The notes beneath the pieces were generated by a model. It did no database searches. It was not told where the DNA came from and saw only the letters and a program-made list of their open reading frames with translations. A stretch of 64,000 nt of DNA from Myxococcota bacterium (GTDB lineage Bacteria; Myxococcota_A; UBA796; UBA2385), in the NCBI GenBank assembly GCA_044344255.1, contig JBIJDH010000015.1, positions 96,001 through 160,000 of the forward strand, given 5' to 3'. Of the stretch, positions 1 to 36,685 are shown piece by piece. Positions within the stretch are counted from its first letter, which is position 1; each line of letters begins with the position of its first letter. The position numbers and the translations under genes were made by a program.

Positions 1-684
1 GTTGCCGCGCGGCCCGACACCGCGGAGGCCGTGGCCCTGGCTCGCTCGGAGGGGGTGGAGCGGGTGATCCTCCACGTCGGCGTTGAAGACCTCGACGGCC
101 TCGAGATCGCCCGCTTCGCGGACAAGGTGGACGTGCTCGTCGTCCCGGTGCAGCCGGGCGCGGGCGCCCTCGTGGCGGCCGGCCGCGCGATGGCGGAGGC
201 GCGGGAGGCGGGCCTGCGGGTGGCCGCCAACACGACGCTGAGCGCCAACACCCTGAGCCAGCTCCCGGCCGCGGCGCGGGTGCTCGCCGCGGCGCGCCCC
301 GCCGAGATCACCTTCACCTACCCCTTCCCGATCAACGGGGGAGACCTCGCGCTGGTGCCCACTCCGGCCCGCACGATGGTCGCCCTCCGCGAGGCCCTCC
401 GCCTGCTCGACCAGGCGGGCCTCCCCGCCGGGATCAAGGGCCTCCCCGCCTGCCTCCTCGGCCCGGAGCAGCACCGCCTCCGCCGCACGGCGAACCGCTG
501 GTACGTCGACGCCGACCACCAGCTCCAGGGGGCGCTGCTCTTCTTCCCCGACGTGGTCGCCTTCCACAAGGAGGAGCTCTGCCGCTTCTGCGCCGCCGAC
601 GACCGCTGCGACGGCTTCTTCGCGAGCTACCTCCGGCGGCCGGGCTCGCCGCAGCTCGAGCCCATCGAGGAGCCGCAGGGATAG
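1..684 (+). CDS. Radical-SAM-like protein, C-terminal part (5' end outside window)
   Basis: Frame open from base 1. GLPAC motif and C-terminal CRFC-x4-CDG cysteine cluster resemble the auxiliary Fe-S region of radical SAM proteins; the CxxxCxxC motif is not in the window. Confidence 0.5.
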   Translation, partial: VAARPDTAEAVALARSEGVERVILHVGVEDLDGLEIARFADKVDVLVVPVQPGAGALVAAGRAMAEAREAGLRVAANTTLSANTLSQLPAAARVLAAARPAEITFTYPFPINGGDLALVPTPARTMVALREALRLLDQAGLPAGIKGLPACLLGPEQHRLRRTANRWYVDADHQLQGALLFFPDVVAFHKEELCRFCAADDRCDGFFASYLRRPGSPQLEPIEEPQG

Positions 685-685
685 G
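640..685 (+). repeat. Direct repeat copy A1 (3' end of the radical-SAM-like gene); partner at 5763-5808
   Basis: ccgggctcgccgcagctcgagcccatcgaggagccgcagggatagg, 42/46 identical to 5763-5808. Confidence 0.9.
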
Positions 686-815
686 GTGCTGCATCAAAGG
701 GGCCGCTGGGAGTTCCGGCTCGGAGCGCGGAGGAGGCCGATCGCGGCGTCGTCCGGACGGCTCGTCGGCCGAGGATCCGGCTCGCTCCCGCTCGGTGGTC
801 CGCGGTGATAACGGG

Positions 816-2261
816 ATGGCTCGGCGTTCGGGAGCTCCGGAGGCCCAGCCGAGGTCCAGCGTGAAGGCCTTCCGACTCCAGAACTTTCGCGGCTTCGAGG
901 ACACCGGCTGGATCGAGCTCCTGCCCCTGACGTTGCTCGTCGGGCCGAACAGCACCGGGAAGAGCAGCCTCCTCCGCTTCCTGCCGCTGGTGCAGCAGAG
1001 CGTGCTGTACCCCACGGTGGGGCCCTTCTTGTGGAGCCGGGAGGGGGGCCTCGACTTTGGGACGCTCGCGACGGTGCGAAGGCGAACCACAAGTGAGCCC
1101 ATGACCGTGCATATGAAACTCGATGACTCTCCGGTCGCGCCCTTGGAGCTGTCAGTTCGAATTCCCTCCGAGGCTCCTCACAACGCTCCCGATCTGGTGG
1201 CCATTCGAGATAGGCTCTTCAACGTCGAGCTTGCTCTTGATAGTTCGGGAAAGGTCACTTCCTCGTCGAAGCTGATTGGGAAAAGTAGGCCTCTATCGTC
1301 GCTGAGTTTTGCCGAAGGCCCTGTGCCGAGCGAGTCCCTCGGAGAAGCCGGTCGGCAGATACGCTTTGGGAGAGCTTCTGTATTTATTGAGGCCATTCCA
1401 GTCACCGTCAAGTCGCTTTACGATGAGGAGGGAGAACTCCTACACTCACTGATCTGGAAATCGGCGGATGCTGCACGAGGCGTCCTGAGCGACAACAATC
1501 TTTACGCGCCAACGGACGATGAGTGGGCCATTCTCCAGGCACTCTGGTGGGCCAGAGGACTTGACCATCGACTGGGAGTGGCGCAGCGCTCTCTGCGAGA
1601 GTGGGGCAGCCGTGTCGCCTACCTCGGTCCCGCCCGCGAGAGCCCCCGGCGCTACTACCGACAGTGGGAAGACCCAGCCCGCCGCCTCGACCCGAGCGGA
1701 CGCAACCTGCCGCTCGTGTTCCTGGCCCTGCCCGAGGCCGATCGCGCCGCCTTCAACGAGCTCCTCGCCGAGCGCCTCGGCTTTCGGATGGAGGTGGAGG
1801 GCACTGGCGCGAACGTGGAGCTCGTGCTGGTCGACGGCGACGGCACTCGTTCCAACCTCATTGACCTCGGCTTCGGCTTCTCCCAGGTCCTCCCCATCTA
1901 CCTGCAGGCCTTCCTCGGTCGCCGCGCGGATCGAGAGGCTGGGCGGGATGTCTCGGTCTTCGCGGTGGAGCAGCCGGAGCTGCACCTTCACCCCCGCCAC
2001 CAGGCCCAGCTCGCCGACCTCTTCGGCTTCGTCACGGCGCCTGTCGAGGGCGGACCTCCGCCCTTCCCCTGCTTCGTGGAGACCCACAGCGAGGCGCTGA
2101 TCGACCGAATGGGCGAGCTCATCTCGGAGGGGAAGGTGCGTCGGGAGGATGTACAGGTGTTGCTCTTCGAGAAGAAGGGAGCTGACTGCACCGTCCGCCG
2201 CACCAATTACGACGCCGAGGGGGTGCTCACCGACTGGCCCCCGGGCTTCCTGGCCCGCTGA
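816..2261 (+). CDS. ABC/AAA_21-type ATPase with DUF3696-like C-terminus (defence-associated)
   Basis: N-terminal LQNFRGF, Walker A GPNSTGKS, signature GFGFSQVLP, Walker B AVEQPELHLHP, H-loop ETHSE, C-terminal DWPPGF. Start could be 795, 816 or 861. Confidence 0.85.
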   Translation: MARRSGAPEAQPRSSVKAFRLQNFRGFEDTGWIELLPLTLLVGPNSTGKSSLLRFLPLVQQSVLYPTVGPFLWSREGGLDFGTLATVRRRTTSEPMTVHMKLDDSPVAPLELSVRIPSEAPHNAPDLVAIRDRLFNVELALDSSGKVTSSSKLIGKSRPLSSLSFAEGPVPSESLGEAGRQIRFGRASVFIEAIPVTVKSLYDEEGELLHSLIWKSADAARGVLSDNNLYAPTDDEWAILQALWWARGLDHRLGVAQRSLREWGSRVAYLGPARESPRRYYRQWEDPARRLDPSGRNLPLVFLALPEADRAAFNELLAERLGFRMEVEGTGANVELVLVDGDGTRSNLIDLGFGFSQVLPIYLQAFLGRRADREAGRDVSVFAVEQPELHLHPRHQAQLADLFGFVTAPVEGGPPPFPCFVETHSEALIDRMGELISEGKVRREDVQVLLFEKKGADCTVRRTNYDAEGVLTDWPPGFLAR

Positions 2262-2264
2262 GCC

Positions 2265-3245
2265 ATGCTCTACTGGCTTCATGAGGAGCTCGAGGAGGGC
2301 ATCCGCGCTCAGGAGCGGCACACGGTCGAGGCCCTCGGCGTGCTCCTCCGCCGGGCCGCGGAGGGCAAGCACCTCCTGCTCTGCGGTCGGCGGGTGCTCA
2401 CCGCGCTGGGGGACTGGGGAAAGCAGGCTCAGCTCGACTTCCGCTCCCGCGGGGCTCTGGAGGAGCTCGGGAAGCGGCTCAAGGACGCGCCCCCCCTCCT
2501 GAATGCAGCGACCGTGCGCGTCGATGTCGGGCCGGCCCGTTGGCCGCGTGGCTGGGCGGACCACGCGAAGTCGGTCTATCAGCTCCCCGTCACCGCCCTC
2601 GACGATATGGACGCCGCCGCCGCGACCACGCTGCTCACCGAGGGGCAGGCGGACGCGAATTTGTTCGAGCAGGCGGCGAGAGCGCTCTTCGCACACAAGG
2701 ATTACTCTTGCCCCCGCTACATTCAGCTCTGCATCCGTCCAGGCCTCGGGGGAGGAGGGCAAATCGGAGACGAGCTGGTGAGAATCTCCCGTCATGGCGC
2801 CCCTGTCCTCTGTGTCGTGGACGCTGACGTCTCCGCACCGGGTGAAGCACCCCGAGAGGGCCAGACAGCCTGGAAGGCGCTCGCCGCCTGTGTCAAGCTG
2901 AGGTCCCCTGCACATGTGGAGGTACTTGCGGCGCGAGAAGTTGAGAACCTGCGACCCTTGCCCCTTCTGCTTGCTGCATTCAGTCCGGTGGACCGAATGC
3001 TGGGCGCTCAATGGGAGGGGAGACAGCAGGAAGGCGCGTTTTTTCCGGATAAGCGGGGACGGTACGAGGAGCTCAAGGGCTCCCTGCCGACGGGGACCAC
3101 AGCCCGATGCGCCGGGCATCTCGCCGACCTCAACAGCCGTGACGCTGCGGGCTTGCTCTTCGCGGGTGGCGATGACACCTGGGCCTCCCTCGCCCGGCTG
3201 GTGCTGGACTGGGGCATCGGGGTCCGCCCAGTGCGATTGTCCTGA
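2265..3245 (+). CDS. Hypothetical ATPase partner with TOPRIM-like nuclease motifs
   Basis: Starts 3 nt after the ATPase stop. Motifs LLTEGQAD, CVVDAD (DxD) and REVENL match the TOPRIM/OLD-type acidic pattern. Confidence 0.55.
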   Translation: MLYWLHEELEEGIRAQERHTVEALGVLLRRAAEGKHLLLCGRRVLTALGDWGKQAQLDFRSRGALEELGKRLKDAPPLLNAATVRVDVGPARWPRGWADHAKSVYQLPVTALDDMDAAAATTLLTEGQADANLFEQAARALFAHKDYSCPRYIQLCIRPGLGGGGQIGDELVRISRHGAPVLCVVDADVSAPGEAPREGQTAWKALAACVKLRSPAHVEVLAAREVENLRPLPLLLAAFSPVDRMLGAQWEGRQQEGAFFPDKRGRYEELKGSLPTGTTARCAGHLADLNSRDAAGLLFAGGDDTWASLARLVLDWGIGVRPVRLS

Positions 3246-3345
3246 ACCTGAGGGCCTCCCGGGCCCTTGGCCCCTGGATCTGCTTCCGCCCCGGCAGCTC
3301 GCGCCCTCTTGGTGGTAACCTGCCGCCTTGAACCCGGACCTCCCC

Positions 3346-5688
3346 ATGCCCAGCCCGATGCCCCGACTCCAATTGCTGTGGGTGCTGTGCATCGCGGGGC
3401 TCCTCTCCGTAGGCTGCAAGGGCAAGGGCACCACGGAGGGCTCCTGCACGGCGGAGGAGCTCGACATGCTGCAGGAGACCTGCCTCTCTCACGGCGGGGA
3501 CTTCGAGGGGGCGTCGAGCTCGTCGAGCTTGGAGGAGTGTGGCACTGCGGTGGGGTGGACGGAGATCAGCGGCAGCTGCCGCCTGGATGGCGAGGGCTCT
3601 TGCTCGGTCGTGTGCAGCTTCCCGTCGGAGGCCGACAGCGGCGACAACGACGGAGACGGCTTCTCGCCAGAGGAGGGGGACTGCGACGATGAAGACCCCG
3701 AGATCAACCCTGCCGCGATCGAGGTCTGCAATGGGGTGGATGACAACTGCAACAACTTCACCGACGACGCCGATCCCAGCCTTGATCTGAGCACGACGAC
3801 CGCCTGGTACCCCGACAACGACGGAGATGCCTTCGGTCAGGTCGAGCCGGCGGCCTATCGCTGCGCAGGTCTTCAAGACGAGGCGTCGCTCTCGGGAGAC
3901 TGCGACGACGGAAACCCCGCCATCAACCCCGGGGCCGACGAGTATTGCGACGGACTCGACACAAACTGCAACGACATCGCCGATGATGAGGCCGTCGACG
4001 CGCCTCCCTGGTTCCCCGACGCCGATGGTGACGGGTACGGGGACCCCTCGCTCATGGTCGCCGAGTGCCATCGCCCGCCGGGGACCTACCTCGACAATGG
4101 TGAGGACTGCGACGACTCCGATGCCTCCATCTCCCCCGCAGCAGTCGAGCGCTGCAATGGCTGGGATGACGACTGCGACGGGGACATCGACGAGATTGGT
4201 GCGTCGGATGGCAGCGTCGTCTACGCAGACCTCGACGGCGATGGCCATGGGGACCCGGGTGCTGCCACCCTCGCCTGCGGGCCCACCGACGGCTACGAGG
4301 CCCTCGGCGATGACTGCGACGACGCGGATGCAGACGTACATCCCGAGCAGACCGAGCGGGCTGCGGATGGCCTCGACAACGACTGCAACGGCGAGATCGA
4401 CACGATCGATATGGGTGATGCCGGGGCGAAGGTGATTGGGGATGCCACCACCAGCAGCGACTATTACTTGGGATACTCCTGGTCCTCCTCCGTTGACGTC
4501 GACGGCGATGGCGACGATGATTTGGCCCTCGGCTCCTATTATGGAAGTTATGGGCGAATCGATCTGGTGGATGGATCCATTTCCGGAAGCGTCAGCGTGG
4601 CGACCGCCACAGCCAGTCTCATTGGCTCGGCGGCTGGAGTAGGTGTCGGCTCCAAGGCCTTCTCTGATGGCGCAGATGCAGACGGAGATGGTTTCGAGGA
4701 CGTTGCAGTCGGGTCCACTTTGTTTGACCATTCCGAGATTTACCTTCAGTTCGGACCTTTTTCAGGTGTGGAATCACTGTCCGAGGATTATGCTGCGCTG
4801 TTGTTTGAAGAGTTCGGTCTATCGGCCAGTCTGGCCGATGTCGATGGCGATACGCTGGCCGACGTGGTGGTTGGAGCCTGGGCTGACTGTCTCCCTGGGG
4901 GCACCCGGCCGGGAGGGGTTTTCGTCTTCGCCTCTCCTCCCTCGCAAAATTCGTCGCTGGCTGACGCGGAGTGGCAGTGGTGTGGCCCACACGACAACGG
5001 AGTCGCAGGAAATGCGGTAGAACCGCTCGACTACAACGGGGATGGTATCTCTGACCTTGTGATAGGTGCATACGAGGACGGCTTCGCGGGGAGCCACGCC
5101 GGAGCGGTCTATCTGGTGCCCGGGGGCGTGCCTCAGGGGAACTACTCTCTCGCTGACGCCGACGACGTCTACTACAGCGAAGCGGCGACAGGCGGCGGCG
5201 CCAATGCCAATCTCGGCCGCTCCGTGGCCAACGGTGGTGACACCAACGGCGATGGACTCGACGATGCAGTCGTTGGCTCCCCCGGTGACTCGGAAGGTGG
5301 TGGAAGCGCTGGCGCTGCCTGGATCCTCGATGGGAGCGTGAGTGGGCCTTCGCTGGCGGGTCTGCCTAAATGGATCGGAGTCATAGCCGACCAGGCGGGC
5401 ATCGTGGTGTCGGGTGTCGGTAATATTGACGGCGCCACGGGGTCGGAGATGCTGGTCGGAAACGCGGATGGCAAGACCTGGCTGGTCGCCAATCCGGGCT
5501 CGAGCACCAGTCTGTTGGAGGACGCTGCGCTCTTCGTCTCCGGCGGAACAGGAGGGGGCGCCTTTGGAGTGGGAGACCTTGACTCCGATGGACTTGGCGA
5601 CTTCCTGGTCACGGACTACTCCGACTCGGAAGGCGGCGCGCAGGCCGGTGCGGTCTTCCTGTTCTTCGGTGCGGACATCGCACCCTGA
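3346..5688 (+). CDS. Secreted lipoprotein with MopE-like putative metal-binding repeats and FG-GAP (integrin-alpha-like) repeats
   Basis: Lipobox-like LLSVGC; repeated DxDGDG..DCDD..PxAxExCNGxDDxCxG units; C-terminal D(V/L)DGDGxxDxxVGA and GAVYL repeats. Start uncertain (3328-3358). Confidence 0.8.
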   Translation: MPSPMPRLQLLWVLCIAGLLSVGCKGKGTTEGSCTAEELDMLQETCLSHGGDFEGASSSSSLEECGTAVGWTEISGSCRLDGEGSCSVVCSFPSEADSGDNDGDGFSPEEGDCDDEDPEINPAAIEVCNGVDDNCNNFTDDADPSLDLSTTTAWYPDNDGDAFGQVEPAAYRCAGLQDEASLSGDCDDGNPAINPGADEYCDGLDTNCNDIADDEAVDAPPWFPDADGDGYGDPSLMVAECHRPPGTYLDNGEDCDDSDASISPAAVERCNGWDDDCDGDIDEIGASDGSVVYADLDGDGHGDPGAATLACGPTDGYEALGDDCDDADADVHPEQTERAADGLDNDCNGEIDTIDMGDAGAKVIGDATTSSDYYLGYSWSSSVDVDGDGDDDLALGSYYGSYGRIDLVDGSISGSVSVATATASLIGSAAGVGVGSKAFSDGADADGDGFEDVAVGSTLFDHSEIYLQFGPFSGVESLSEDYAALLFEEFGLSASLADVDGDTLADVVVGAWADCLPGGTRPGGVFVFASPPSQNSSLADAEWQWCGPHDNGVAGNAVEPLDYNGDGISDLVIGAYEDGFAGSHAGAVYLVPGGVPQGNYSLADADDVYYSEAATGGGANANLGRSVANGGDTNGDGLDDAVVGSPGDSEGGGSAGAAWILDGSVSGPSLAGLPKWIGVIADQAGIVVSGVGNIDGATGSEMLVGNADGKTWLVANPGSSTSLLEDAALFVSGGTGGGAFGVGDLDSDGLGDFLVTDYSDSEGGAQAGAVFLFFGADIAP

Positions 5689-5762
5689 GCGGGTCTCCAA
5701 GACCTGGAGGCAGAGCGAGTCGCTCCATTCCCTGTGAGGTGCCCTGAGCGGCGAGGCCATCT

Positions 5763-5808
5763 CCGGGCTCCCCCCAGCTCGAGCCCATCGACGAGCCGCA
5801 GGGGTAGG
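5763..5808 (+). repeat. Direct repeat copy A2: orphan 3' end of the radical-SAM-like gene
   Basis: Encodes PGSPQLEPIDEPQG* versus PGSPQLEPIEEPQG* at 640-684; all 4 mismatches are at third codon positions. Confidence 0.9.
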
Positions 5809-5823
5809 CCGCCCGGTGGACCG

Positions 5824-6381
5824 TCAGCCGTGCCGGTACATGACGTCCGTGCGGAGCACATACTTCCTGCCCCGGGTGACCGCTGCACCCTCGTGCGGCA
5901 CCGCGTGCTTGAACAGGAGCACCTTTCCGGTCTCTGGCTTCACCTGGATGTTCGGGACGAAGTTTGTCTCTCCGCCCTCGAAGTCTTCGTTCAGGTAGAT
6001 CATGCAGGTCAACAGGCTCCGCTCCAGCGCGGAGCGGACGAAGGCGCCGTCGGAGTGGAAGGCGAAGCGCTCTCCCGGATCGTATCGATACCAGCGAAAG
6101 CGCTCGTTGAGCCCGACGGGGGTGAAGGCCCCGCCCTGAGGAGGGGTGACCGATTCGAGTCGGCCCCACAGGGCCGCGGCGAGGGCGGGGTTGTCCTCCA
6201 TCAGCCGCGTGTTGTTCCGGATGTCGGTCCGCATCACGGGCCCTCGCGCGGTGGTCACCGGGGCGGCGGTGAAGCCCCGGGACTCGGCGGACGCGATCGC
6301 GGTGGCGCAGTCGGCCGGAGAGAGGAAGGACGGGACCTCCCAGATGAGGCCGGCTTCGACCGTGTGGAGTTTTGGGGCCAT
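5824..6381 (-). CDS. 2OG-Fe(II) oxygenase (prolyl-4-hydroxylase-like)
   Basis: HxD (HSD), YLN, GGET, distal H (PHEG), KYVLRTD. Confidence 0.85.
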   Translation of the reverse strand: MAPKLHTVEAGLIWEVPSFLSPADCATAIASAESRGFTAAPVTTARGPVMRTDIRNNTRLMEDNPALAAALWGRLESVTPPQGGAFTPVGLNERFRWYRYDPGERFAFHSDGAFVRSALERSLLTCMIYLNEDFEGGETNFVPNIQVKPETGKVLLFKHAVPHEGAAVTRGRKYVLRTDVMYRHG

Positions 6382-6469
6382 CGCCGTGGGTCACTCCTCG
6401 ATCGGAGTCTGCCACAGGCGTGGCCGCGCGGGGGCGAGCGCCGCTCGGCGGCCTCGCCCCACCGCACCC

Positions 6470-7084: not shown

Positions 7085-7312
7085 GAGTGCTCCAGTCGTG
7101 GGTCTGTCCCCGAACGGTGCAACAACCGCGCCGCTCGGCCGGGGGCCACCTCGGCGGGCAAGCATCGGCGAGAACGGCGCTTTCTTCCTACTCCAGCGAG
7201 TGAGCGTCGCCCCCGATTCACGGGAGTGGGCCCTGCGGAGCGACCATCACCTTGACGGTGGCCCCCCCTCACCCTGGGGGCGGCGCTGGGTCCGCCTCGA
7301 GGGTCGGCGCGT

Positions 7313-8263: not shown

Positions 8264-8343
8264 CCCAGCGCCTATCTCGGGCGGGAGCTTCGAGGCCCTC
8301 GGGCTCCGCGGCGCCCAGGCGGGGGCGCGCGCGCGGCGGCGCC

Positions 8344-9840: not shown

Positions 9841-9858
9841 GGGGGCGGCGCTCGGCCT

Positions 9859-10293: not shown

Positions 10294-10389
10294 CCCGGGA
10301 GGCTATCACTTCGGCCCCGACGGCCGCGCCCGGTTCGGCCGGCGGGTTAGGGCGGCGCGGCTTGGGCCCCCTCCAGCTGCAGGTCCGCG

Positions 10390-11241: not shown

Positions 11242-11244
11242 GGG

Positions 11245-11703: not shown

Positions 11704-11765
11704 GAGTGCTCCGGGGTCGGGCGCCTTATCCGACCGCGACCGGCGCCGTGCGCGCCGATCCCCGC

Positions 11766-24338: not shown

Positions 24339-24366
24339 GCCGGCGCGAGCGGAGGAGTCGGAGCCG

Positions 24367-27380: not shown

Positions 27381-27508
27381 CCTTGACATCGGCGCACCTC
27401 CGGCGGACCACCCTATCCTCGGCCGGGCTCCGCACCCCTCGGCCGGTGACGGGCTACCTTGAGACCCGCTTCGATCGCAGCGATCGCCCGCGCGGCCCCG
27501 AGGTGACC

Positions 27509-30035
27509 ATGCCCCTGCCCCCCCCTTGGTGGAGCCGCCCCACGGCGGAGCTGGTCGCCGGGCTCTCCACGCCGAGGGGCCTCGATCCCGCCGAGGCCGC
27601 CGCCCGGCTCCGGCGAGACGGCCCCAACCGCGTCGTCGATCGCGCCGAGCGGAGCGCCTGGCGGGCCCTCTTCGCCCAGCTCGGCAACCCGCTCGTGCTG
27701 CTGCTGATCGTCGCCGCGCTGATCTCGCTCGCGGTGGGCGAGTGGGTGGACGCCGCGATCGTGCTCACCATCGTCTTCGTGAGCGCCGGGGTGGAGTGGT
27801 GGCAGGAGCGGCGGGCCGGAGAGGCCCTCGGCCGCCTCCGCGCGCGGGTCACCGTGCTCACCACGGTCGAGCGCGGCGGGGCGGCGCTCCAGGTGCCCGC
27901 CGAGGCGGTCGTGCGGGGTGACGTCGTGCGCCTGTCGGCCGGGAGCCTGATCCCCGCCGACGGCGTGGTGCTCGAGGCCCGCGACTTCTTCGTCAATCAG
28001 GCCAGCCTCACCGGAGAGACCTTCCCCGTCGAGAAGACCGCCGCGCCCTCACCGGCTGACGCCGCCCTCTCCGCCCGCACGAACGCGGTCTACCTCGGCA
28101 CGAACGTGCGCAGCGGCTCGGCGCGGATGCTCGTCGTCGAGACCGGCCGCGCCACGGTCTTCGGCGACATCGCGGCCCGCCTCGCCACCCCGACCGAGGA
28201 GACCGACTTCGAGCGGGGCCTCCGCGACTTCGGGCGCCTGCTCACCCAGGCGATGGCGGTCCTCGTCCTGCTCGTCTTCGCGGTCCACCTCTGGCTCGGC
28301 CGGCCCCTCGTCGACGGGCTCCTCTTCGCGATCGCGCTGGCGGTGGGCATCGCGCCCGAGCTCCTCCCCGCCGTGCTGCTCGTCAACCTCTCGCGCGGGG
28401 CGGAGCGGATGGCCGCGGCCGGGGTCATCGTGCGGCGCCTCGCCGCCATCGAAGACATCGGCAGCATGGACGTGCTGTGCACCGACAAGACGGGCACCCT
28501 CACCGTCGGCACCGTGCACCTGCAGGACGCGCTCGACCCCGAGGGCGCGGCCTCCCCCGAGGTCCTCCGCCTCGCCATCGTCAACGCCCGCTTGCAGACC
28601 GGCCTCGAGAACCCCCTCGACCTCGCCCTCTCCGCGCAGGATCCCGACGGGCCCCTCCCCGAGAAGATCGGCGAGATCCCCTACGACTTCCTCCGTAAGC
28701 GGCTCACCGTGGTGGTGCGGCGCGAAGACGGCGCGGCCGAGCTCATCACCAAGGGGGCCCTCGAGTCGGTCCTGTCCGTCTGCGCCTTCATCGACAGCCC
28801 GACCGGCTTTGTCCGCCTCGACGAGGCCGGCCGCGCCGCGCTCCACGCGCGCCTCGTCGACTGGAGCGCCGAGGGGTCGCGGGTGCTCGGGGTCGCCCGC
28901 GGCACCGTGAAGGACCGCGGGCGATACAGCCGCGCCGACGAGGCCGACCTCATCTTCATGGGCTTCCTCCGCTTCGAAGACCCGCTCAAGGAGGGGGGTG
29001 CGCGAGGCCATCGGCGCCCTCGCCGCGCTGGGGGTCGGCCTGAAGGTCATCACCGGAGACAACCGATACGCCGCCGAGCACCTCCGAAAGGCCCTGTCCC
29101 TGCCCGAGGCCCCGGTGCTCACCGGTCACGACCTCCTCCAGATGTCCGACGAGGCCCTCGGCCACCACGTCGAGGCCACGCAGGTCTTCGCCGAGGTCGA
29201 TCCCAATCAGAAGGAGCGCATCATCCGCGCCCTCCAGCGGCGCAGCCACGTCGTGGGCTACCTCGGCGACGGCATCAACGACGCGCCGGCCCTGCACGCC
29301 GCCGACGTGGGCCTCTCGGTAGAGGGGGCGGTCGACGTGGCCAAGGAGGCCGCCGACTTCGTCCTCCTGTCGCCTGACCTCGACGTGCTGCGCGCGGGTG
29401 TGATCCAAGGGCGGACCACCTTCGCCAACACGATGAAATACGTGATGACCACCGAGTCTGCCAATCTCGGAAATATGCTCTCGATGGCGGCGGCGTCCTG
29501 GTTCTTGCCCTTCCTGCCCTTGCTCGCCAAGCAGATCCTCCTCAACAATTTCCTGTCCGACTTTCCGGCGATGGCGATGGCCTCGGACACCGTAGACGAG
29601 GAGCTCATTCGCCGCCCCCAGCGTTGGGATGTGGCCGGCATTCGTCGTTTCATGATCTTCTTCGGGCTCATCTCCTCGGTCTTTGACGGCCTCACCTTCT
29701 TCGTGCTGCTCCACGTCGCCCGCGCGAGCGAGGTGGGCTTCCGCACCGCCTGGTTCGTCGAGTCACTCCTCTCGGAGCTGGCGGTGGCCCTCGTCATCCG
29801 CACCCGCCGCCGCGCCTGGCAGAGCCGCCCCGGCAAGGCCCTCTGGTGGAGCTCGGTCGTCGTCGCCGCCGTGGCCATCGCGCTCCCCTACCTGCCCGGC
29901 GCCGACCGCCTCGGCTTCGCCCCGATGCCCCCGGCCCTGCTCGCGACCGTCCTCGGGGTCACGGCCGCCTACGTGGTCACCGTCGAGGTGGGCAAGGTGG
30001 TGTTCTACCGTTGGCTGTTCGTGGACCGGCCCTGA
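27509..30035 (+). pseudogene. mgtA: Mg2+-importing P-type ATPase, split by a +1 frameshift in a G6 run (28993-28998); may be a sequencing error
   Basis: LTGE, PE, DKTGTLT in ORF1; TGDN, GDGINDAPAL, ANLGNMLS, QILLNN in ORF2; removing one G joins them. Confidence 0.8.
29997..30035 (+). repeat. Direct repeat copy B1 (3' end of mgtA); partner at 36647-36685
   Basis: gtggtgttctaccgttggctgttcgtggaccggccctga, 33/39 identical to 36647-36685. Confidence 0.88.
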
Positions 30036-30065
30036 CGCCCAGAGACCCGGACGGATAGCGCTGGT

Positions 30066-32675
30066 ATGATGAACGCCTTCCTTCACAAGTCCGTCCACAG
30101 TCAGCCCGCCGAGCAGATCGCCGACCTGATGGAGTGCCTCTCGGCGATCCCCGCGAAGGGGCCCATCCGATTGCCGCAGGTCAAGGCGTTGCAGGGCGGC
30201 TTGAGAGGCGTCCTTCGCCTCCGGGACGGTCACTATCGCGCCTTCTTCCATGTTGAGGATGTGGAGGGCGAGGGTGTAGACGGCGAAGGTGTAGAGTCCA
30301 CGCGTCGCACCGTCTGGATCCACGCGCTCGTGCCGCGAAGGGATGCCTATCGCCAGGCGGGGCCGCAGCAGCGAGTTGAACGTTGGCTGAAGACCAACCC
30401 TCGGAGCGTAGACGGGTACGTTCGTCGTGCGGTGCCCGTGTTGGGTCCGACCGTCCTCGGTTCACCCGTTGTCCTCCCTTATGTCCTCCCTTGGCTCAGT
30501 GAGCGGCAGGGTGACCTGTTGGAAGCGATCAGCGCAGGCGCAGGCGCTGGCGCCGAGAGGCGGAGCTTCTTGCACCTCGCGGTCGGGCCGCCGGGGAGCG
30601 GCAAGACTGTCGTCGCTATCGAAGCCGCGCGGGAGGCCTGGCTCCGCGACGCCGATGTGCTGTTCCTCGTCCCCTCCAGCCGCTTGGTGCGGCAGGTCCG
30701 GGATGCGCTGGTGGACGGCGAGCGCCTCGCGCCAGAGCCATTCGGCGCAGGCGCTCCATCGAGCGCACCCCAGGTCTGGGTTGAGCGTGTTCAGGACTTC
30801 TTTCGTTCCTTCGGGCGGGCCCGTGAGCCCGACGGTTGGGTCGCAAATTGGCTGCGGCGCGCCTACCAGCTCCCGGCCCTCCAGCGCTGGAGGGCTGAAC
30901 ATCCGACCGCGTCGGGCCCCCGCTTCGTCGAGCTCGTGGACGCGGTCCTGTTCGATGAGCAGGCGACAGGCACCAAAGAGAAGGACGCCCTGTCCAATCA
31001 GGATGACAAACTTCGAAGGGCGCTGGAGGCGCTCGAGGGGCCCGCGCTGCGGGCTGCGCTCGGAGGTTGCCGACCCCCCGACCGCGCGCTTCGGTGGGAG
31101 CGGGCCCGCGCCACCTTGGACCCGCTTCGGCACCTTCATCGGGGGCGAGAGCTCTTGATCCTCGTCGACGAAGCTCAGGACCTTGCCCCCGGTGAGTGGC
31201 AGACGCTGGTGAAGGCGGCGTGGCACCGAAGCGCGCGGGGCGGCCCTCGAACCACCCTCGCCCTGTTCGGGGATGAGAACCAGCGGATCACACCCTCTGC
31301 TTTTTCCTGGTCTGACGTTCAGGACTTCACGAGCGGGCTGGCTCCAGAGCTCGGCCGTGGCGGGGGGCATCGAAGGGTGAGCCTCCCCGGTTCGCACCGA
31401 ACCCCGGCCAACATCGCCCGTGCGGCGGCCTCCCTCATGGACGGCTCCCTCGTCGGGGGTCGCCACCGCCGAGCGGAGACCGCGGATCCCGAGCGCCTTC
31501 AGCCTGGCGGATTGGTGCTTGTCCACGTGTGTGACGCCCCCGAGGCGCTCCTGCACGAGGCGGCGAGCACCGCCTTCCGAGGTCGAGACCGCGACGACCG
31601 CGTCGTCGTCCTCCCGGTGTCGGAGGGCCCGCTCGGGCCGCACCTCGACGCGCTCGCGGTCGAGGAGGCGAAGGGCTTGGAGTGGCCGGCGGTGGTGTTG
31701 CTCGGGCTCTTCGGGGACGGGGTAGACTTCGATGCCCGTGCTCGGGCCTATACGCGCCTCACCCGCGCATGGTGCCAGGTGCTCATCCTCCTCCGGCCAG
31801 AAGAGTGGGAACGTGTCGGCGGTGTCTGGACGGAGGCGGGTGTTCCCCACCGAACGGTAGGCGCTGAGCACCTCCCCGCGGTGCTCGTGGGCTTCATCGA
31901 CACCAGCGGCCACGCGCAGCGGACGTCGGAGCGGGTCTCTCGAATCGAGAGCCTCATCGAACAAGCGGAGAGCGGGGGCGAGCCATTCCCCTTGGAGGTC
32001 CTCGGAGAGACCTACGCGGTGTCTCTGCTCCGATGGGGAGCCGGCGAAGCGCTCCTGAGCGTCGCTGCGACCGCGCTGGAGCTCATGCCGCGTTGGGAAA
32101 GTGACCTCCTCGCGGCCACCCGGGCTGACGACGCAGAGCGGGCCGCAGCCGCCTGGCTCCTGCTCGGCGACGCTGGGGCGGCGCTTGTCCACCTGGAGAC
32201 TCACGCTGACCGGTCTTCGCTCCTCGGGCCGCTGGTGGAGCTGGTTCGTCGGGGGTCGGCCTTCCACCGAGCCAGCGCCGACCTTCGGCGCGCCTCCGGT
32301 TTCGGCCGACCGCTCACCAGCTTGATTCGGGAGGCGCTCCTCCGACGGTGTCTGGAGCGCCTCCGATCCGCCGGCCAGATAGATCCCCCGGACACTGTCC
32401 ACCCCGCCCAGACCCGATGGGAGCACTCCGTCCAGGACACGATCCACGTCACCCACACCGAGGTCGAAACAATGATGAACGAGATCGCAGGGGTGTTTGG
32501 CGGACAATGGGACTCCTCTCAGTCCGGGCTGCTCCAATCCCTTCACAACGAAGCCCTTTCGGCGCGGGTGAAGGGGCTGTCCACTCGCTGGGACCGCCTC
32601 GTGTCTCCAATCGGTGGAGCGCTTGATGATACAACGCAGGATGGCGACGTGATCCAAGAAGGACGTGATCCATGA
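30066..32675 (+). CDS. RelE/ParE-like toxin domain fused to a superfamily-1 (UvrD-like) helicase/ATPase
   Basis: N-terminal LRLRDGHYRAFF..VWIHALVPRRDAYR; GPPGSGKT, VDEAQD, GDENQ, SHR, AKGLEW, YTRLTRA. Confidence 0.75.
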   Translation: MMNAFLHKSVHSQPAEQIADLMECLSAIPAKGPIRLPQVKALQGGLRGVLRLRDGHYRAFFHVEDVEGEGVDGEGVESTRRTVWIHALVPRRDAYRQAGPQQRVERWLKTNPRSVDGYVRRAVPVLGPTVLGSPVVLPYVLPWLSERQGDLLEAISAGAGAGAERRSFLHLAVGPPGSGKTVVAIEAAREAWLRDADVLFLVPSSRLVRQVRDALVDGERLAPEPFGAGAPSSAPQVWVERVQDFFRSFGRAREPDGWVANWLRRAYQLPALQRWRAEHPTASGPRFVELVDAVLFDEQATGTKEKDALSNQDDKLRRALEALEGPALRAALGGCRPPDRALRWERARATLDPLRHLHRGRELLILVDEAQDLAPGEWQTLVKAAWHRSARGGPRTTLALFGDENQRITPSAFSWSDVQDFTSGLAPELGRGGGHRRVSLPGSHRTPANIARAAASLMDGSLVGGRHRRAETADPERLQPGGLVLVHVCDAPEALLHEAASTAFRGRDRDDRVVVLPVSEGPLGPHLDALAVEEAKGLEWPAVVLLGLFGDGVDFDARARAYTRLTRAWCQVLILLRPEEWERVGGVWTEAGVPHRTVGAEHLPAVLVGFIDTSGHAQRTSERVSRIESLIEQAESGGEPFPLEVLGETYAVSLLRWGAGEALLSVAATALELMPRWESDLLAATRADDAERAAAAWLLLGDAGAALVHLETHADRSSLLGPLVELVRRGSAFHRASADLRRASGFGRPLTSLIREALLRRCLERLRSAGQIDPPDTVHPAQTRWEHSVQDTIHVTHTEVETMMNEIAGVFGGQWDSSQSGLLQSLHNEALSARVKGLSTRWDRLVSPIGGALDDTTQDGDVIQEGRDP

Positions 32676-33868
32676 GGTCTGACCCCAACCCCAACATGTC
32701 CGTAGAGCCCACTCCGCACATCTCCCCGGCGGTTGAGACCTCTCCAGCGGTGGAGATCTCCCCAGCGGTTGAGGCCGTGATCGGAACGGAGGCGCAGCTC
32801 TTGGAGATGTTGCACCACGATCTCGAACGCGCCCTGGACGCGAAGATCGACGCGGCGCGTAAGGAGCTCTCGAAGCGTGTCGCGGATCGGGACGCCGAAC
32901 TGGCGGACACCCTCCGCGACTGGGAGGCGCGGGAGTCCGCCGCCGAGAAGAAGCTCGCCGCCCTACAGGCCGAGCGTGACAGGGCCAACGAGCGGGCCGT
33001 GCGCCTGGAGGCCGATCGTCTCGCCCTCCAGGCGGAGCTTACCGCCTCCACGCAGCGCCGAGAGGGGGTGGAGGAAGCATTGGAGTGCGAGCGGCTCGCC
33101 CGCGCCGAAACCGAGGCCGCCCTGGAATTTGAGCGCGCTCGGCCGCCGGCCCCCAACCCGACCCCCGCTGAGCCCGCACTTCCGATACCCCAGGGGTCGT
33201 TCGGCGCTCAGCTCCTAGGATGGTCCCTGAGCGAGCTCGACGGGGAGCCCATCCTCGGCTGGGGGCGACCGGACCCCTCACCGGACTATTCAACGATCGC
33301 CTATGCCACAGGTGGGTGGTCTTTCTATCACGAAGGGTTGGGGCCGGCGGAGGGCGTCTCCGCTCGTCGGTTCCGGCTGGAGCTGACCCTCCCGGAGGCC
33401 GACCGGTGGGTGGCGTGGATCAGCGAAGCCCCAGACGTCCTCGCCTGGCTGCCGCACGTCGAGGACCCCGATCCGACCTGCATCGCGAGCGTGCCGTGGG
33501 GAGCGCTCTATGGGGATCGGGCATCCGCCGAGGCGGCCGGCCTGCGTCTGGGGGTGAAGTCCTTCAACTTCTCAGCGCCCATCCCAATCGCGCAGGCGAT
33601 CTGCGAACCGCCGCCGCTGCATGAGTGGTTGGCCGCCGATCAGTCGTTGGTGCGGTGGCTTGAGTGGATGGGCTTCCAGGTAGCCGATCTTCGCCCCGCG
33701 AACAGCCTCTGGATCCTGGATGGCGCGTCGGGGGAGCGTGGCGCCTGGACGCCTCGGATGGAGGCGCTCTATCGACTCCTCCGCCGGGCGGATTTCCCGG
33801 TTCAGCGCACCGCGCCGGATGGGCCGGGTCACAAGCTTTACGGGCAGGCTGCCTACATCAGGGCATGA
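32672..33868 (+). CDS. Hypothetical protein with N-terminal coiled coil
   Basis: ATGA overlap with the helicase gene; long E/A/R-rich heptad region; 18-bp x3 repeat at 32720-32773. Confidence 0.65.
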   Translation: MRSDPNPNMSVEPTPHISPAVETSPAVEISPAVEAVIGTEAQLLEMLHHDLERALDAKIDAARKELSKRVADRDAELADTLRDWEARESAAEKKLAALQAERDRANERAVRLEADRLALQAELTASTQRREGVEEALECERLARAETEAALEFERARPPAPNPTPAEPALPIPQGSFGAQLLGWSLSELDGEPILGWGRPDPSPDYSTIAYATGGWSFYHEGLGPAEGVSARRFRLELTLPEADRWVAWISEAPDVLAWLPHVEDPDPTCIASVPWGALYGDRASAEAAGLRLGVKSFNFSAPIPIAQAICEPPPLHEWLAADQSLVRWLEWMGFQVADLRPANSLWILDGASGERGAWTPRMEALYRLLRRADFPVQRTAPDGPGHKLYGQAAYIRA

Positions 33869-33991
33869 ATTGACTTCCGCGTCCTCTCCGGGCGCCGACG
33901 AGGACTTGTCTGGTCAGGCCTCACAACGCTCCCCCTTCATGCGCTACCATGCCGCTCCCGGTGAACCCCGCCCGCCGGCCCGAGCGCCCGC

Positions 33992-34252
33992 ATGATCCCC
34001 AGCCCCGGTGAAGTCGTCCACTGCCGATCGCGGCGCTACCTCGTCGAGGATGTCGTACCCCGCGCCACGCTCGGCGAGGACACCCTCGTCCGCCTCGCCT
34101 GCATCGACGACGACGCCCAGGGGCAACCGCTCGAGGTGCTGTGGGAGCGGGAGATCGACGCCCGCAGCCTGAGCGCCACCCCCTGGGGGTCCGTCGTCGC
34201 CAAGGGCTTCGACGATCCTCGGTGGTTCTCGGGCCCCCAGAAGGAGGATTGA
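33992..34252 (+). pseudogene. drmD: N-terminal fragment of a DISARM DrmD-like SNF2 helicase
   Basis: PGEVV..RSRRYLVEDV..LVRLACIDDDAQGQPLEVLWERE..GFDDP matches the DrmD N-terminus as recalled; stops at 86 aa with no helicase motifs. Confidence 0.65.
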
Positions 34253-34538
34253 TGGGGTTCGGCCGCAGGGCACAGGCGAGGGACAGCGCCCTGCTAACGC
34301 CGGCAGTCCCCCTCCGTCGCCGATGCGGCGACACCTCCCCCAGCGGATGGGGGAGGCTGTTTTCTTCGATGTTCACTCCTCTGAATGCTGGTCCTGCCGA
34401 CATCATCCTCCCCCATCTTATGGGAGAGGTGGCGCTCGTCGCGCCGGAGGCGGACGCGGAAGAGCGCCGGCACGAGGCTGCGATACGCCGGCTTGGGCGC
34501 TCCGGTCTGCACCAGCCGCACCGGAAAGGAGCACCGTG

Positions 34539-36263
34539 ATGCCCCTCCCCCTCTCCATCACCGACCTCCTGCACGGCAAGACCGTGGAGTGGGAGCGCCT
34601 TGAGCTCAAGGCCGGCTGGAACCCGCTGGACGTGCTTCACACCCTCTGCGCCTTCGCCAATGACTTCCACAACTTCGGGGGCGGCTACATCCTCATCGGG
34701 GTCGCCGAGCAGGATGGCCGCCCCGTGCTGCCGCCGGTGGGCCTCTCGCTGGAGGGCCTCGACAGCATTCAGAAGGAGCTCCTGAACCTCGGTCACAGCG
34801 CGATGAAGCCCTCCTATCACCCGATCGCCGCCCCTTACGAGATCGATGGGCGGCAGATCCTCGTGCTCTGGGCCCCTGGCGGACAGACCCGCCCTTATCG
34901 GGCACGAATGACGCTCGGGAAGGACGACCGCGACTACGGCTGGTTCATCCGTAAGGGATCATCCACCGTTGTCGCCCGCGGCGCCGATGAGACCGAGCTC
35001 ATGTCTCTCGCGGCGACGGTGCCCTTTGATGATCGGGTCAACCAGCGGGCCACGGTGGAGGATCTCTCCCGCCCGCTGATCATCGAATTTCTCACCGAGG
35101 TCGGGAGCGAGCTCGCCCTGCCGGCGGCGACACTCCCCCTCGCGGAGCTCGGCCGCCAGATGCATGTCGTGGGCGGCTCCCCGGAGGCCCCTTTCCCGCT
35201 GAACGTCGGCCTGCTCTTCTTCAATCCGGCACCGCACCGCTTCTTCCCCGGCACGCAGATCGATGTCGTGTGGTTCCCCGAGGGGCCCGGCGCCGACCGC
35301 TTCACCGAGAAGGAGTTTCGCGGGCCCATTCACCGCATCCTCCGCGACGCCCTCGACCACATCGACCGCCTTTACATCACCGTCACGGTCATCAAGCATC
35401 GCGACCGCCCCCAGGCCGACCGCGTCTTTAATTTCCCCCTCGACGCCATCGAGGAGGCCCTTGTCAACGCCATCTACCATCGGTCCTATGAGGAGCGGGA
35501 GCCCGTCGAGGTGCGTATCGGCCGGGAGGAGCTCTCCGTCGTGAGCTACCCCGGGCCCGATCGCTCGGTGAAGCTGGAGGCCCTGCGCGCGGGGCGGGCG
35601 ATGTCGAGGCGCTACCGGAACCGGCGCATCGGCGAGCTCTTGAAGGAGCTGGACCTCACCGAGGGGCGCGGCACCGGCATCTCCAAGATCGTTCGAGCGA
35701 TGAAGGTAAATGGGTCGCCGCCGCCGGTCTTCGAGTTTGACGAGGACCACAGCTACTTCGCCGTGGTCCTGCCGATTCATGTGGCCGCCAGCCCACGGGG
35801 GGGAACCGAACAAGTCACCGGGGAAGTCACCCTACAAGTCACCCCACAAGTCGACCCGGCGACCCCGGACGTCACCCCACAAGTCGACCCGGCGACCCCG
35901 GAAGTCACCCTACAAGTCACCCCGGAGGTCGACCCGGCGACCCCGGAAGTCGTCTCGACAGATAATAAACATGTCGTTAAACCTGAAGAACGCGACGCCC
36001 TACAAGTCACCCTACAAGTCACCCTACAAGTTGAGTCCGAGCTGCTACTGCTGCTCTCGTCGGTCTCAGACGAGCCCTCCACGAGGCAGATCCTGACGCG
36101 CCTCGGGCTGGTGGACCGGGCAAACCTCCGGGACTTGTACCTGCTCCCTGCCCTCGCCGAGGGCCTCGTCGAGATGACCCGCCCCGACAAGCCGCGCAGC
36201 AGCAAGCAGCGATACCGCCTCACCGAGAAGGGCCGAGTCTGGCTCGCCCGTTCGAAACCCTGA
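34539..36263 (+). CDS. Schlafen/AlbA_2 + HATPase_c_4 (RecG-C-like) ATP-binding protein with C-terminal HTH
   Basis: aaggag RBS; ELK, CAFAN..GGYILIGV, EALVNAIYHRSY, RNRRIGE.LKEL, EGRGTG, PDKPRSSKQRYRLT. Confidence 0.85.
   Translation: MPLPLSITDLLHGKTVEWERLELKAGWNPLDVLHTLCAFANDFHNFGGGYILIGVAEQDGRPVLPPVGLSLEGLDSIQKELLNLGHSAMKPSYHPIAAPYEIDGRQILVLWAPGGQTRPYRARMTLGKDDRDYGWFIRKGSSTVVARGADETELMSLAATVPFDDRVNQRATVEDLSRPLIIEFLTEVGSELALPAATLPLAELGRQMHVVGGSPEAPFPLNVGLLFFNPAPHRFFPGTQIDVVWFPEGPGADRFTEKEFRGPIHRILRDALDHIDRLYITVTVIKHRDRPQADRVFNFPLDAIEEALVNAIYHRSYEEREPVEVRIGREELSVVSYPGPDRSVKLEALRAGRAMSRRYRNRRIGELLKELDLTEGRGTGISKIVRAMKVNGSPPPVFEFDEDHSYFAVVLPIHVAASPRGGTEQVTGEVTLQVTPQVDPATPDVTPQVDPATPEVTLQVTPEVDPATPEVVSTDNKHVVKPEERDALQVTLQVTLQVESELLLLLSSVSDEPSTRQILTRLGLVDRANLRDLYLLPALAEGLVEMTRPDKPRSSKQRYRLTEKGRVWLARSKP
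35811..36030 (+). repeat. In-frame tandem repeats (12-bp caagtcaccc(c/t)a and longer units) encoding QVTP/QVTL/VDPATPE
   Basis: Seen directly. Confidence 0.9.
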
Positions 36264-36646
36264 GTGTCGACACAGCGAGCCCCGAGCGCCCCAGGGAACC
36301 GAACGATGTGCGCGACCGCCTGCGACGTGCGCTCCGTCTGGACCTCGTGGGTGCAGAGGTCCGCTGGGGGACAACGACACCCTCATCCCAAACCCTACGC
36401 AGGTCTCGGGCGAGACGCTGACGGCGAAGCAGCGAGGGGGAGCGGGATACGGAAGTCGAAGCGGATCCAGCTCTCCTTGCCGGTCCACCGGGCTCAAGAA
36501 GACCTATCTGTCCCCGGCCACCCGGGCGTCCGCCTCGTCGTGACCGCTCGCGTGGTGGTGGGCACTGCCGTGAAGGCGGGCTCGGTGTCTGACTTTGTCG
36601 TGACCGAGCGGCCGCCCGCTGGCGATCCGGTGCACGAGCGGTCTGA
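36264..36646 (+). pseudogene. Decayed N-terminal fragment of a DISARM DrmA-like helicase
   Basis: VRDRLRRALRLDLVG (36308-36352) and, in another frame, VPGHPGVRLVVTAR..SVSDFVVTERPP resemble the DrmA N-terminus; cut off at repeat B2. Confidence 0.45.
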
Positions 36647-36685
36647 GTGGTGTACTACCGCTGGCTGTTCGTGCACCGGCCGTAG
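36647..36685 (+). repeat. Direct repeat copy B2: orphan 3' end of mgtA
   Basis: Encodes VVYYRWLFVHRP* versus VVFYRWLFVDRP* at 29997-30035. Confidence 0.88.

Follow-up and report, generated by a model that had tools for sequence, protein, structure and literature searches.

How does a block of DNA come to lie directly behind the stop codon of a gene, end with a second copy of that gene's tail and yet encode no integrase? The question is raised by a window of 64,000 nucleotides (positions 96,001 to 160,000 of contig JBIJDH010000015.1) from the genome of an uncultured lake bacterium of the Myxococcota, a metagenome assembly (GCA_044344255.1) of 83 contigs and 8.18 Mb that is 95% complete. Two such blocks were seen in the window, and a preliminary description made from the sequence alone read them as a recurring, integrase-free route for acquiring defense cassettes at gene 3' ends.

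Two cargo blocks in the window

The features of both blocks are collected in Table 1, where the second, gene-less copy of each tail is called the orphan tail. The best other ungapped matches to the two repeats in the whole 8.18-Mb genome, on both strands, reach only 31/46 and 27/39 nt, so neither pair is due to chance. All four differences within repeat 1 fall at third codon positions, and its longest unbroken identity is 17 nt; taken alone, its 3 to 1 substitution ratio is not significant (P 0.17). An apparent third copy of repeat 1 was rejected as a chance 21-mer. The GC content is 0.654 in block 1 and 0.680 in block 2, compared to 0.707 for the DNA between them, and the window contains no tRNA gene.

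Table 1 Features of the two cargo blocks and their target genes, in window coordinates
Feature	Position	Strand	Description
Target gene 1, 3' part	1..684	+	299 aa; starts 215 nt before the window; no Pfam family
Gene-side copy, repeat 1	640..685	+	final 14 codons of target gene 1 plus TAG
AAA_15/AAA_21 ATPase	795..2261	+	Pfam; PADLOC PDC-M55A, E 2.4e-41; candidate defense gene
Partner of the ATPase	2265..3245	+	326 aa; weak PADLOC PDC-M55B-like match, E 0.0075; no Pfam
MopE/FG-GAP repeat surface protein	3328..5688	+	786 aa; large paralog family; not a known defense gene
Orphan tail 1	5763..5808	+	42/46 nt identical to gene-side copy
2OG-Fe(II) oxygenase	5824..6381	-	convergent; stop 15 nt past orphan tail 1
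Target gene 2, MgtA-type P-type ATPase	27383..30035	+	two frames: 27383-29377 and 28998-30035
Gene-side copy, repeat 2	29997..30035	+	final 12 codons of target gene 2 plus TGA
Superfamily-1 helicase-like ATPase	30066..32675	+	869 aa; Pfam ResIII/AAA_19/UvrD_C_2
398-aa protein	32672..33868	+	no known family
DISARM DrmD-like helicase, N-terminal fragment	33992..34252	+	86 aa; NCBIfam NF038317 positions 2-78 of 1021, E 7e-18
AlbA_2/HATPase_c_4/Fic-like_C protein	34539..36263	+	574 aa; ORF open from 34323
Orphan tail 2	36647..36685	+	33/39 nt identical to gene-side copy; stop TAG, TGA in the gene

Target gene 1 is conserved in its family (homologs in 19/21 family genomes), whereas target gene 2 found no match above 35% identity in 18 family genomes and is frameshifted, with the break at a G run near 28993-28998. 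The first ATPase of block 1 most likely starts near 864. Its top homolog beyond its own cluster is 68% identical across half the length, and its relatives in named genomes are distant (29-49%), all of them without the partner gene. In block 2, the helicase-like protein matched HelR at E 1e-6, far under the cut-off, and gave weak PADLOC matches (best E 1.4e-4).

Much of the preliminary description held on this closer examination: both tail pairs and their match counts are correct and stand above the best chance matches genome-wide, the two targets are unrelated, and no integrase or transposase was found among the ORFs of either block. The proposed defense cargo was supported only in part. Block 1 carries the PDC-M55A-like ATPase, but nearly half of it is the MopE/FG-GAP protein; block 2 offers the DrmD fragment, itself short, and a helicase with weak matches.

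It had also been considered that strain mixing during assembly created the duplicated tails, as the genome is a metagenome assembly in many contigs. However, a single contig of run X1, possibly the source of the assembly, crosses the entire block 1, a contig of run X15 crosses the orphan junction and one of run X20 that on the gene side, all three at 0 differences. Together with the short identity stretch of repeat 1 (at most 17 nt) and with orphans that are eroded and nested, these contigs of independent runs, which cover block 1, make an assembly artifact a practically negligible explanation.

Orphan gene tails across the genome

Islands of this kind recur throughout the genome, with 3' polarity, right ends anchored at the stop codon, variable left ends, eroded orphans and neither a recombinase nor a shared motif. 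A scan of the 5615 called genes identified 23 matches at 22 loci where an orphan tail lies downstream of 1.7-31 kb of lower-GC cargo, and 2 matches with the tail upstream. Control scans of the same genes returned 9 matches for gene heads upstream, 5 for heads downstream, 3 and 0 for mid-gene segments, and 1 and 0 at a distance of 30-60 kb. An independent self-BLAST gave 22 tail-down, 0 tail-up, 8 head-up and 3 head-down matches. Tail-down loci thus number 22 against 0-2 tail-up and 8-9 head-up (P 0.03 for the latter), although the head counts may be underestimated because gene start calls are imprecise. A convergent neighbor was present at 11/22 loci, compared to 33% (P 0.08), which accounts for the polarity only partly. 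Two weak matches with gaps below 500 nt (C24:106590 and C38:3867) and two local segment duplications (C36:71298 and C83:251429) were left out. C6:16949 was retained although it lies inside a paralog cluster; cargo scans covered 21 loci, with C6:16949 outside the Pfam comparison. Codon-substitution and junction-motif comparisons covered 20 loci; counts of third positions, IS ends, erosion and right ends covered all 22. The recurrence that had been suspected from two cases is therefore established, and the possibility that the window held the only two in the genome is removed.

The right ends of the repeats lie within 16 nt of the stop at 16/22 loci, where 6.9 were expected and none of 20000 simulations was as extreme. 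Coding tails measure 30-252 nt as single blocks and up to 527 nt when internal deletions, present in 5/22 orphans, are counted. Three tails are nested at C74:79283, and some repeats are nearly identical (C54, 148/150, spanning two convergent gene ends; C18, 258/268; C70, 61/62). This more than tenfold spread, partly produced by erosion, does not agree with the earlier suggestion that a uniform tail of about 40-45 nt indicates one mechanism; tails of that length may be what remains after erosion through point changes, internal deletions and IS insertions.

The targets, among them glycosyltransferases, radical SAM enzymes, kinases, MgtA and proteins of the ABC and TonB kinds, are unrelated and often accessory. 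Cargo GC is below 0.70 at 20/22 loci, compared to 26% of 5-kb windows. Only about 5/21 scanned loci carry defense-like cargo and equally many carry MopE/FG-GAP surface proteins, so that a route specific to defense genes, as first described, is not supported. No integrase, relaxase or phage family was found among 95 cargo ORFs, no reverse transcriptase among the scanned cargo ORFs and no recombinase inside any island; transposase pieces were present in three cargos (C59, C15 and C74:79283).

No same-genus genome was found, and the best JGI metagenome relative was 74% identical. Homologous loci in relatives were without the cargo ATPase pair, the 2OG neighbor and the tail repeats. In tiles of 20 kb, tail-down loci numbered 16 in 370 tiles of the genome itself; five family genomes, sampled by 57 unselected tiles (1.14 Mb), gave 0 where 2.5 were expected (P 0.085). 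Twenty tiles chosen around AAA_21 genes showed one tail-down match (G033, 343/377 nt, three cargo ORFs without a recombinase match) and one paralog-like tail-up match. Positions 1-10000 of the window were present in 20/22 listed runs. The repeat motif had 0 matches in viral contigs, where no relative of the helicase was found either.

Allelic nature of some tails and competing explanations

To what extent the two copies are alleles was visible in protein clusters. At 5/16 loci with other cluster members, intact or longer proteins of near-identical strains carry residues of the orphan. For target gene 1, orphan tail 1 encodes D at E295 of the gene, and D is also present in the intact protein P0005 (E295D) and in the outgroup G003. 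At C74:79283, 4/4 other proteins end in VLGD as in the orphan, and P0012/13 additionally have E437 and G439. The remaining cases are P0038 (A215T) for the WecG gene at C18, P0184 (E425A) at C54 and P0181 (D142L) at C51. The C18, C51 and C74 proteins share part of the orphan changes but not all, as expected from an allele that decayed afterward. The other 11/16 loci showed no orphan residue in other cluster members, including target gene 2, whose cluster holds the same sequence only. Two orphan ORFs found at C18 in other strains (P0037 and P0039) equal our intact gene at the protein level. Comparison with relatives had been proposed as a check, and it yielded these shared residues but neither an empty site nor a donor. 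Excision or misassembly could have given rise to hybrid proteins such as P0013.

Substitution patterns were compared with the expectation from duplication and decay. C<->G changes fall 40 times at third, 10 times at first and 2 times at second positions (P 0.008 against the 2:1 ceiling), and synonymous changes outnumber others at C74:231224 (11 to 2, P 0.004) and C20 (11 to 3, P 0.002). GC3 is 786/842 in orphans and 796/842 in gene copies. The third-position excess and GC3 indicate coding constraint on both copies. The pooled pN/pS of 0.46 (95% range 0.34-0.62) overlaps the 0.55-0.6 expected from duplication and decay, and testing third positions for GC-to-AT change (29 to 19) did not reject that model either (P 0.05-0.11). 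The orphan residues in intact proteins of near-identical strains thus show that at these loci the copies represent two alleles, some orphans being the other allele of the gene rather than a decayed duplication of the target.

These loci are probably best explained as scars of a C-terminal displacement that resembles homology-facilitated illegitimate recombination (HFIR), of a kind known from rhs/T6SS loci: one side would have recombined by homology within a conserved gene, the opposite side would have been joined illegitimately, and erosion would have followed. Two related chromosomes would share a gene A and differ in the DNA behind its stop. On one side, a RecA-type exchange would take place within sequence common to both; on the opposite side, an illegitimate join would fall within the final 30-500 nt of A. 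The product would read intact A of one allele, cargo, orphan tail of the other allele and next resident gene. Homology stops where the gene orders diverge, so repeats would end at the stop; the illegitimate join is free to fall anywhere, so repeat starts would vary. Point changes, internal deletions and IS insertions would later erode the orphan, and selection would retain events that leave every gene whole. Homology-anchored illegitimate recombination displacing the gene tail was among the routes first suggested, and it fits the alleles, the stop-anchored ends and the third-position excess best. Microhomology at the illegitimate join could be assessed at 3/22 joins only: at C54 a cargo paralog matches the target at about 15/19 nt, and the other two joins are IS-like ends without microhomology. 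DNA may have entered by transformation; the genome encodes two RecA, ComEC and DprA, although such genes do not prove competence. As for direction, it is somewhat favored that a donor supplied the A-tail with cargo and displaced the resident tail, and only a little less plausible that a cargo-free donor anchored in the downstream flank brought the orphan in and trimmed resident cargo. Comparison of flank alleles did not tell the two apart. Classical HFIR, a known process compared below, tends to delete rather than duplicate recipient DNA, a bias that fits the second direction better.

An unlikely alternative is that repeats already present recombine to yield circles carrying a gene tail and cargo, which then enter the chromosomes of other strains through a single homologous crossover, as in the rhs model of Jackson et al. 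(2009). It yields exactly the order gene, cargo, orphan with a variable fragment length (PMC2935791, available portions), repeats of 60-500 nt are RecA substrates, and the WecG orphan junction occurs in several strains with differing orphans and with intact alleles mixed among the orphan states. However, circles account for spread and not for how cargo and tail were first joined, repeats of 39-46 nt that are 85-91% identical make poor substrates, and neither a circle join nor an empty site appeared among the listed 15 of 102 joints in contigs of four runs (three too thin, at a depth of about 3-6, and contigs lose rare forms). Slightly less likely still is a one-step, long and variable target-site duplication by a transposase or break repair, with orphan decay and selection for cases that cover the stop. 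Elements of the IS1634/IS1549 type produce long variable repeats, the young cases C54 and C70 are nearly identical, the pooled pN/pS is compatible, and IS-like ends adjoin a junction at 3/22 loci. Against it stand the clustering of right ends at the stop, the orphan residues in intact alleles and the third-position excess; inverted termini are absent, and DUF4277 (IS1634), IS110 and Ku were not found in the 95% complete genome. Junctions abutting repeats number 3/44 (a fourth is a tandem paralog) compared to 5/198 controls, with 0 at the four window junctions. On the basis of these junction repeats and the motif controls, REP-like or IS-carried tails were also rejected as a general cause.

The other route first suggested, a recombinase acting in trans, or else a guided system, dedicated to gene 3' ends with relaxed specificity, would suit the strong tail-down polarity, which convergent neighbors explain only in part, and recombinase matches in the genome number 3 of the tyrosine and 8 of the serine type. 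These genes, however, lie at least 60 kb from the nearest island or on other contigs, and the lack of a motif noted between the two window sites extends to 20 loci: none exceeded random sets at four junction classes, and inverted ends scored 5-9.5, where the null 95th percentile was 9.5. With unrelated targets, a tenfold length range and head counts that may be low, we regard such a system as very unlikely. Integrative elements are known to restore the 3' ends of their target genes, and decay inside cargos (the DrmD fragment of block 2, IS remnants) could suggest relics of attL/attR or CIME-like islands that lost their integrase. Such relics are highly improbable, as about 22 different integrases would be needed for 22 unrelated targets, all lost even where repeats are 98-99% identical; the 95 cargo ORFs offered no trace of them, and no viral relatives were found. 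A diversity-generating retroelement was rejected, since all 12 substitution types occur between copies, not adenine changes alone, and the scanned cargo ORFs lack a reverse transcriptase.

Relation to known systems

The attL/attR repeats of integrative elements at protein-gene 3' ends keep the target whole, and the present repeats resemble these and IS1634/IS1549 duplications in being direct and in sparing the gene. An integrase, a fixed site, a shared core, inverted termini and an IS1634-family transposase were all looked for here and not found, and repeat lengths are not fixed (30-527 nt).

A close process is HFIR, described as a rare event in laboratory transformation of S. pneumoniae and A. 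baylyi as well as P. stutzeri (available portions of PMC2884548, PMC5361080 and PMC6382021). The proposed events would share with it a homologous anchor on one side and a non-homologous join on the other, the host likewise has RecA, ComEC and DprA, and no element-encoded recombinase was found, transposase pieces in three cargos aside; an anchor between two alleles is suggested here by the residues at 5/16 loci, the third-position excess and the stop-anchored ends. The present case differs in that 22 scars are the basis for proposing it and that what they display is a duplication; RecA dependence and microhomology are putative. At rhs and T6SS effector-immunity loci, C-terminal displacement leaves orphan 3' fragments (PMC2935791 and PMC5361080, in part), and the order of intact gene, acquired DNA and variable-length orphan, including nested orphans, is the same. 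There, however, a non-homologous toxin tip in one gene family is the selected cargo, whereas here near-synonymous allele tails belong to unrelated ordinary genes, not to polymorphic toxins with an exchangeable tip and immunity gene, and the cargo consists of separate genes.

Listings of the mainly open-access literature showed no survey of orphan tails behind ordinary genes on the scale of a whole genome. What is new is the census with its controls, together with the evidence from alleles; surprise is moderate because the mechanism class is known. At stake is the origin of integrase-free islands. In the laboratory HFIR is rare, and at toxin loci it has only been proposed. It is doubtful that displacement of gene tails forms a general route of gene gain with built-in 3' bias and is the main founder of integrase-free islands and hotspots in such bacteria, the bias arising, for example, from joins favored near transcription ends, strand-exchange polarity or an unknown host factor. 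If true, the 22 or more events in this genome, with some 130 kb, would be its products and not chance accidents that selection let through. Orphan tails behind cargo can be counted from a single genome and, with the present controls, could be tallied across genomes against competence genes, and the allele test via protein clusters offers a way to separate displacement from target duplication.

At integrase-less hotspots of horizontal gene transfer, which are commoner in transformable species, turnover takes place through recombination within the core genes that flank them, and an integrase is encoded in fewer than half of hotspots; in the available portions of that account, turnover was explained and origin was not (PMC5635113). 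The islands described here resemble them as low-GC accessory blocks without mobility genes adjoining conserved genes. Double homologous recombination leaves no duplicated tail, whereas an orphan is the mark of a one-sided event, in which a hotspot was possibly born or trimmed.

Repeated gene tails in the window and across the genome

Both repeat pairs in the window were present as the preliminary description reported, with 42/46 and 33/39 identical nucleotides, and the next best genome matches reached 31/46 and 27/39. The cargo between the gene-side tail and the orphan tail, its diverged second copy, comprises a PDC-M55-like ATPase pair and a MopE/FG-GAP protein in block 1, and a helicase-like gene, a gene of unknown family, a DrmD fragment and an AlbA_2 protein in block 2. 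Neither block contains a recombinase. An assembly artefact was examined for block 1, where contigs from other runs spanned both junctions with no differences. The assembly has 83 contigs, 8.18 Mb and a GC content of about 71%; the window corresponds to C17:96001-160000. Window DNA is present in lake and freshwater metagenomes, and among the named homologues of target gene 1 are some labelled Myxococcota and Deltaproteobacteria.

Genes were called with our own hexamer model, in which start positions are imprecise, and copies of the tail, head and middle of 5615 genes were sought within 30 kb. After removal of paralogues, this whole-genome search returned 23 downstream tail copies at 22 loci, compared with control counts of 2 for tail upstream, 9 for head upstream, 5 for head downstream, 3 and 0 for gene middles, and 1 and 0 for tails at 30-60 kb. 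An independent self-BLAST gave 22 tail-down, 0 tail-up, 8 head-up and 3 head-down pairs, together with 19 intergenic and 23 and 15 mid-gene pairs. The working set of 22 loci combined 20 from self-BLAST and 2 from the gene census, with four weak or segmental cases removed. The gene-tail phenomenon is real, recurrent and integrase-free, and is neither fixed in length nor specific to defence.

Orphan gene heads also lie upstream of genes at 8-9 loci, and these mirror cases and the 19 intergenic pairs often surround low-GC DNA; both classes probably arise by the same process. That orphan tails outnumber orphan heads (P 0.03) may be due to selection, to inaccurately called gene starts or to the mechanism itself; selection is suggested by the convergent orientation of 11/22 downstream neighbors against 33% genome-wide (P 0.08). 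In family genomes, 1.49 Mb yielded one case where 3.2 were expected (P 0.17), with none in 57 unselected tiles.

Coordinates of the repeats and neighboring features (positions lacking a contig label are in the window)
Feature	Position	Remarks
Repeat 1	640-685/5763-5808	target gene 1
Repeat 2	29997-30035/36647-36685	target gene 2
Target gene 2, MgtA-type P-type ATPase	27383-30035	two frames, break at six-G run near 28993-28998; all five cluster members cover the same short C-terminal region, in full or in pieces
37-nt inverted repeat	34328-34435	between DrmD fragment and AlbA_2 gene
AlbA_2 gene	35817-36053	coordinates are those of short tandem repeats inside the gene
Ketosynthase, HMG-CoA synthase-like and enoyl-CoA hydratase genes	37336-42844
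7113-aa ORF	42301-63642 (-)	upstream of the preceding genes
Large polyketide cluster with beta-branching cassette	37336-42844 and 42301-63642	probable, judged from genes beside the 7113-aa ORF
Three-tail locus (L029)	C74:79283-86369	functional gene's tail, displaced VLGD-type tail, and 29-nt gene-type copy past a 23-nt spacer; VLGD ending in 4/4 other strains; ISAs1 end abuts gene-side copy
Convergent-gene locus (L025)	C54:90062-94974	148/150-nt repeat spans overlapping ends of two convergent genes
Orphan heads (examples)	C43:10091-16433; C38:5521-7147; C56:19611-26798
Multicopy element end (example)	C74:234203-234262	finishes sharply in CTATCCCC; at least 20 places in the genome, often at contig ends
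Tail repeat of HTTM-domain gene, G033 (family member, other genus; contig C99)	L096:16153-19589	343/377 nt; 2.7 kb cargo between copies
Regularly spaced 36-43 nt repeats	L082:20076-21410; L083:17064-18785; L094:8268-15334	resemble CRISPR-type or tandem arrays

Anatomy of the repeats, cargo and junctions

The repeats end within 16 nt of the stop codon at 16 of 22 loci (offsets tabulated by hand), compared with 6.9 expected and with no value as high in 20,000 simulations. Each repeat begins sharply, at a point that differs between loci; coding tails span 30-252 nt as single blocks, and five orphans carry internal deletions from an original span of 230-530 nt. The similar tail length of ~40-45 nt noted earlier therefore gives way to a broad, eroding distribution with the window pairs at its short end. 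The repeat on C54, the youngest case, leaves both convergent genes whole because it covers both gene ends.

Cargo measures 1.7-30.6 kb per locus, about 132 kb in sum, with GC below 0.70 at 20/22 loci. Defence-like cargo is present in the window blocks and at loci with McrBC (C41), Septu-like PtuA/PtuB (C74:111087) and CcdAB (C77), a minority overall; looser candidates (WYL, caspase, AAA_16) occur at four more, and MopE or FG-GAP proteins at 5/21 loci. The targets are unrelated to one another throughout the census. IS-like ends adjoin three of the 22 loci (IS21-like, C15; ISAs1, C74:79283; multicopy end, C74:231224), corresponding to 3/44 junctions against 5/198 controls and to 0/4 window junctions.

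Origin of the orphan tails and possible mechanism

The orphans could represent alleles from other strains or decayed duplicates of the resident tail. The pooled pN/pS of 0.46 (79 synonymous, 103 non-synonymous; range 0.34-0.62) does not separate these models. Changes between C and G fell 40, 10 and 2 times at third, first and second codon positions (P 0.008 against the 2:1 ceiling of duplication plus decay), two loci were strongly synonymous (11:2 and 11:3), and orphan GC3 was kept at 93%. Among 20 target proteins queried against 90% protein clusters, 18 were found and 16 loci had other members. Intact proteins of other members carried orphan residues at five of these (window gene 1, C74:79283, C18, C54 and C51) and none did so at 11/16; several of these 11 clusters, including that of window gene 2, hold only this genome's own sequence. 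For window gene 1, a protein from another strain (P0005) ends with D295 as the orphan does, and the outgroup G003 also has D. At C18, the orphan ORFs of other strains differ from the intact gene by anything from no change to four, indicating that decay is also real. The partner gene in block 1 shows no strain variant and occurs on a similar number of contigs to the gene-1 allele (7 and 8), and variants exist for both flanks, an indirect hint that other strains may lack block 1.

Two routes had been offered for these insertions. A trans-acting recombinase with relaxed specificity lost ground, as junction sequences were no more similar than random (in line with the absence of a shared motif noted earlier), no inverted ends were found at the junctions, and the genome's recombinase hits (3 tyrosine, 8 serine) all lie at least 60 kb from the islands or on other contigs. 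Homology-anchored illegitimate recombination is the simplest account, its steps being inferred: two chromosomes that have the target gene in common and differ behind it would recombine homologously at one end and be joined illegitimately at the other. The genome encodes two RecA, ComEC and DprA, and no Ku was detected in the assembly, which is 95% complete. Microhomology occurs at one join (C54, via a cargo paralogue). Neither a donor nor an empty site nor a circle came to light; this includes the 15 of 102 joints listed for contigs of sequencing runs, and contigs drop rare forms.

Comparison with known systems

Integrase-driven islands were rejected on the lack of a shared junction sequence and of any integrase or resolvase among 95 cargo ORFs of the 19 non-window loci, and IS1634-type duplication on the lack of inverted ends; DGRs were likewise rejected. 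In the accessible portions of the literature searched, mostly outside subscription journals, we found no genome-wide account of orphan tails at ordinary genes. The process would work in the manner of homology-facilitated illegitimate recombination (PMC2884548, PMC5361080, PMC6382021) and of C-terminal displacement at rhs/T6SS loci (PMC2935791, PMC5361080), and the gene-tail loci belong with integrase-less hotspots (PMC5635113).
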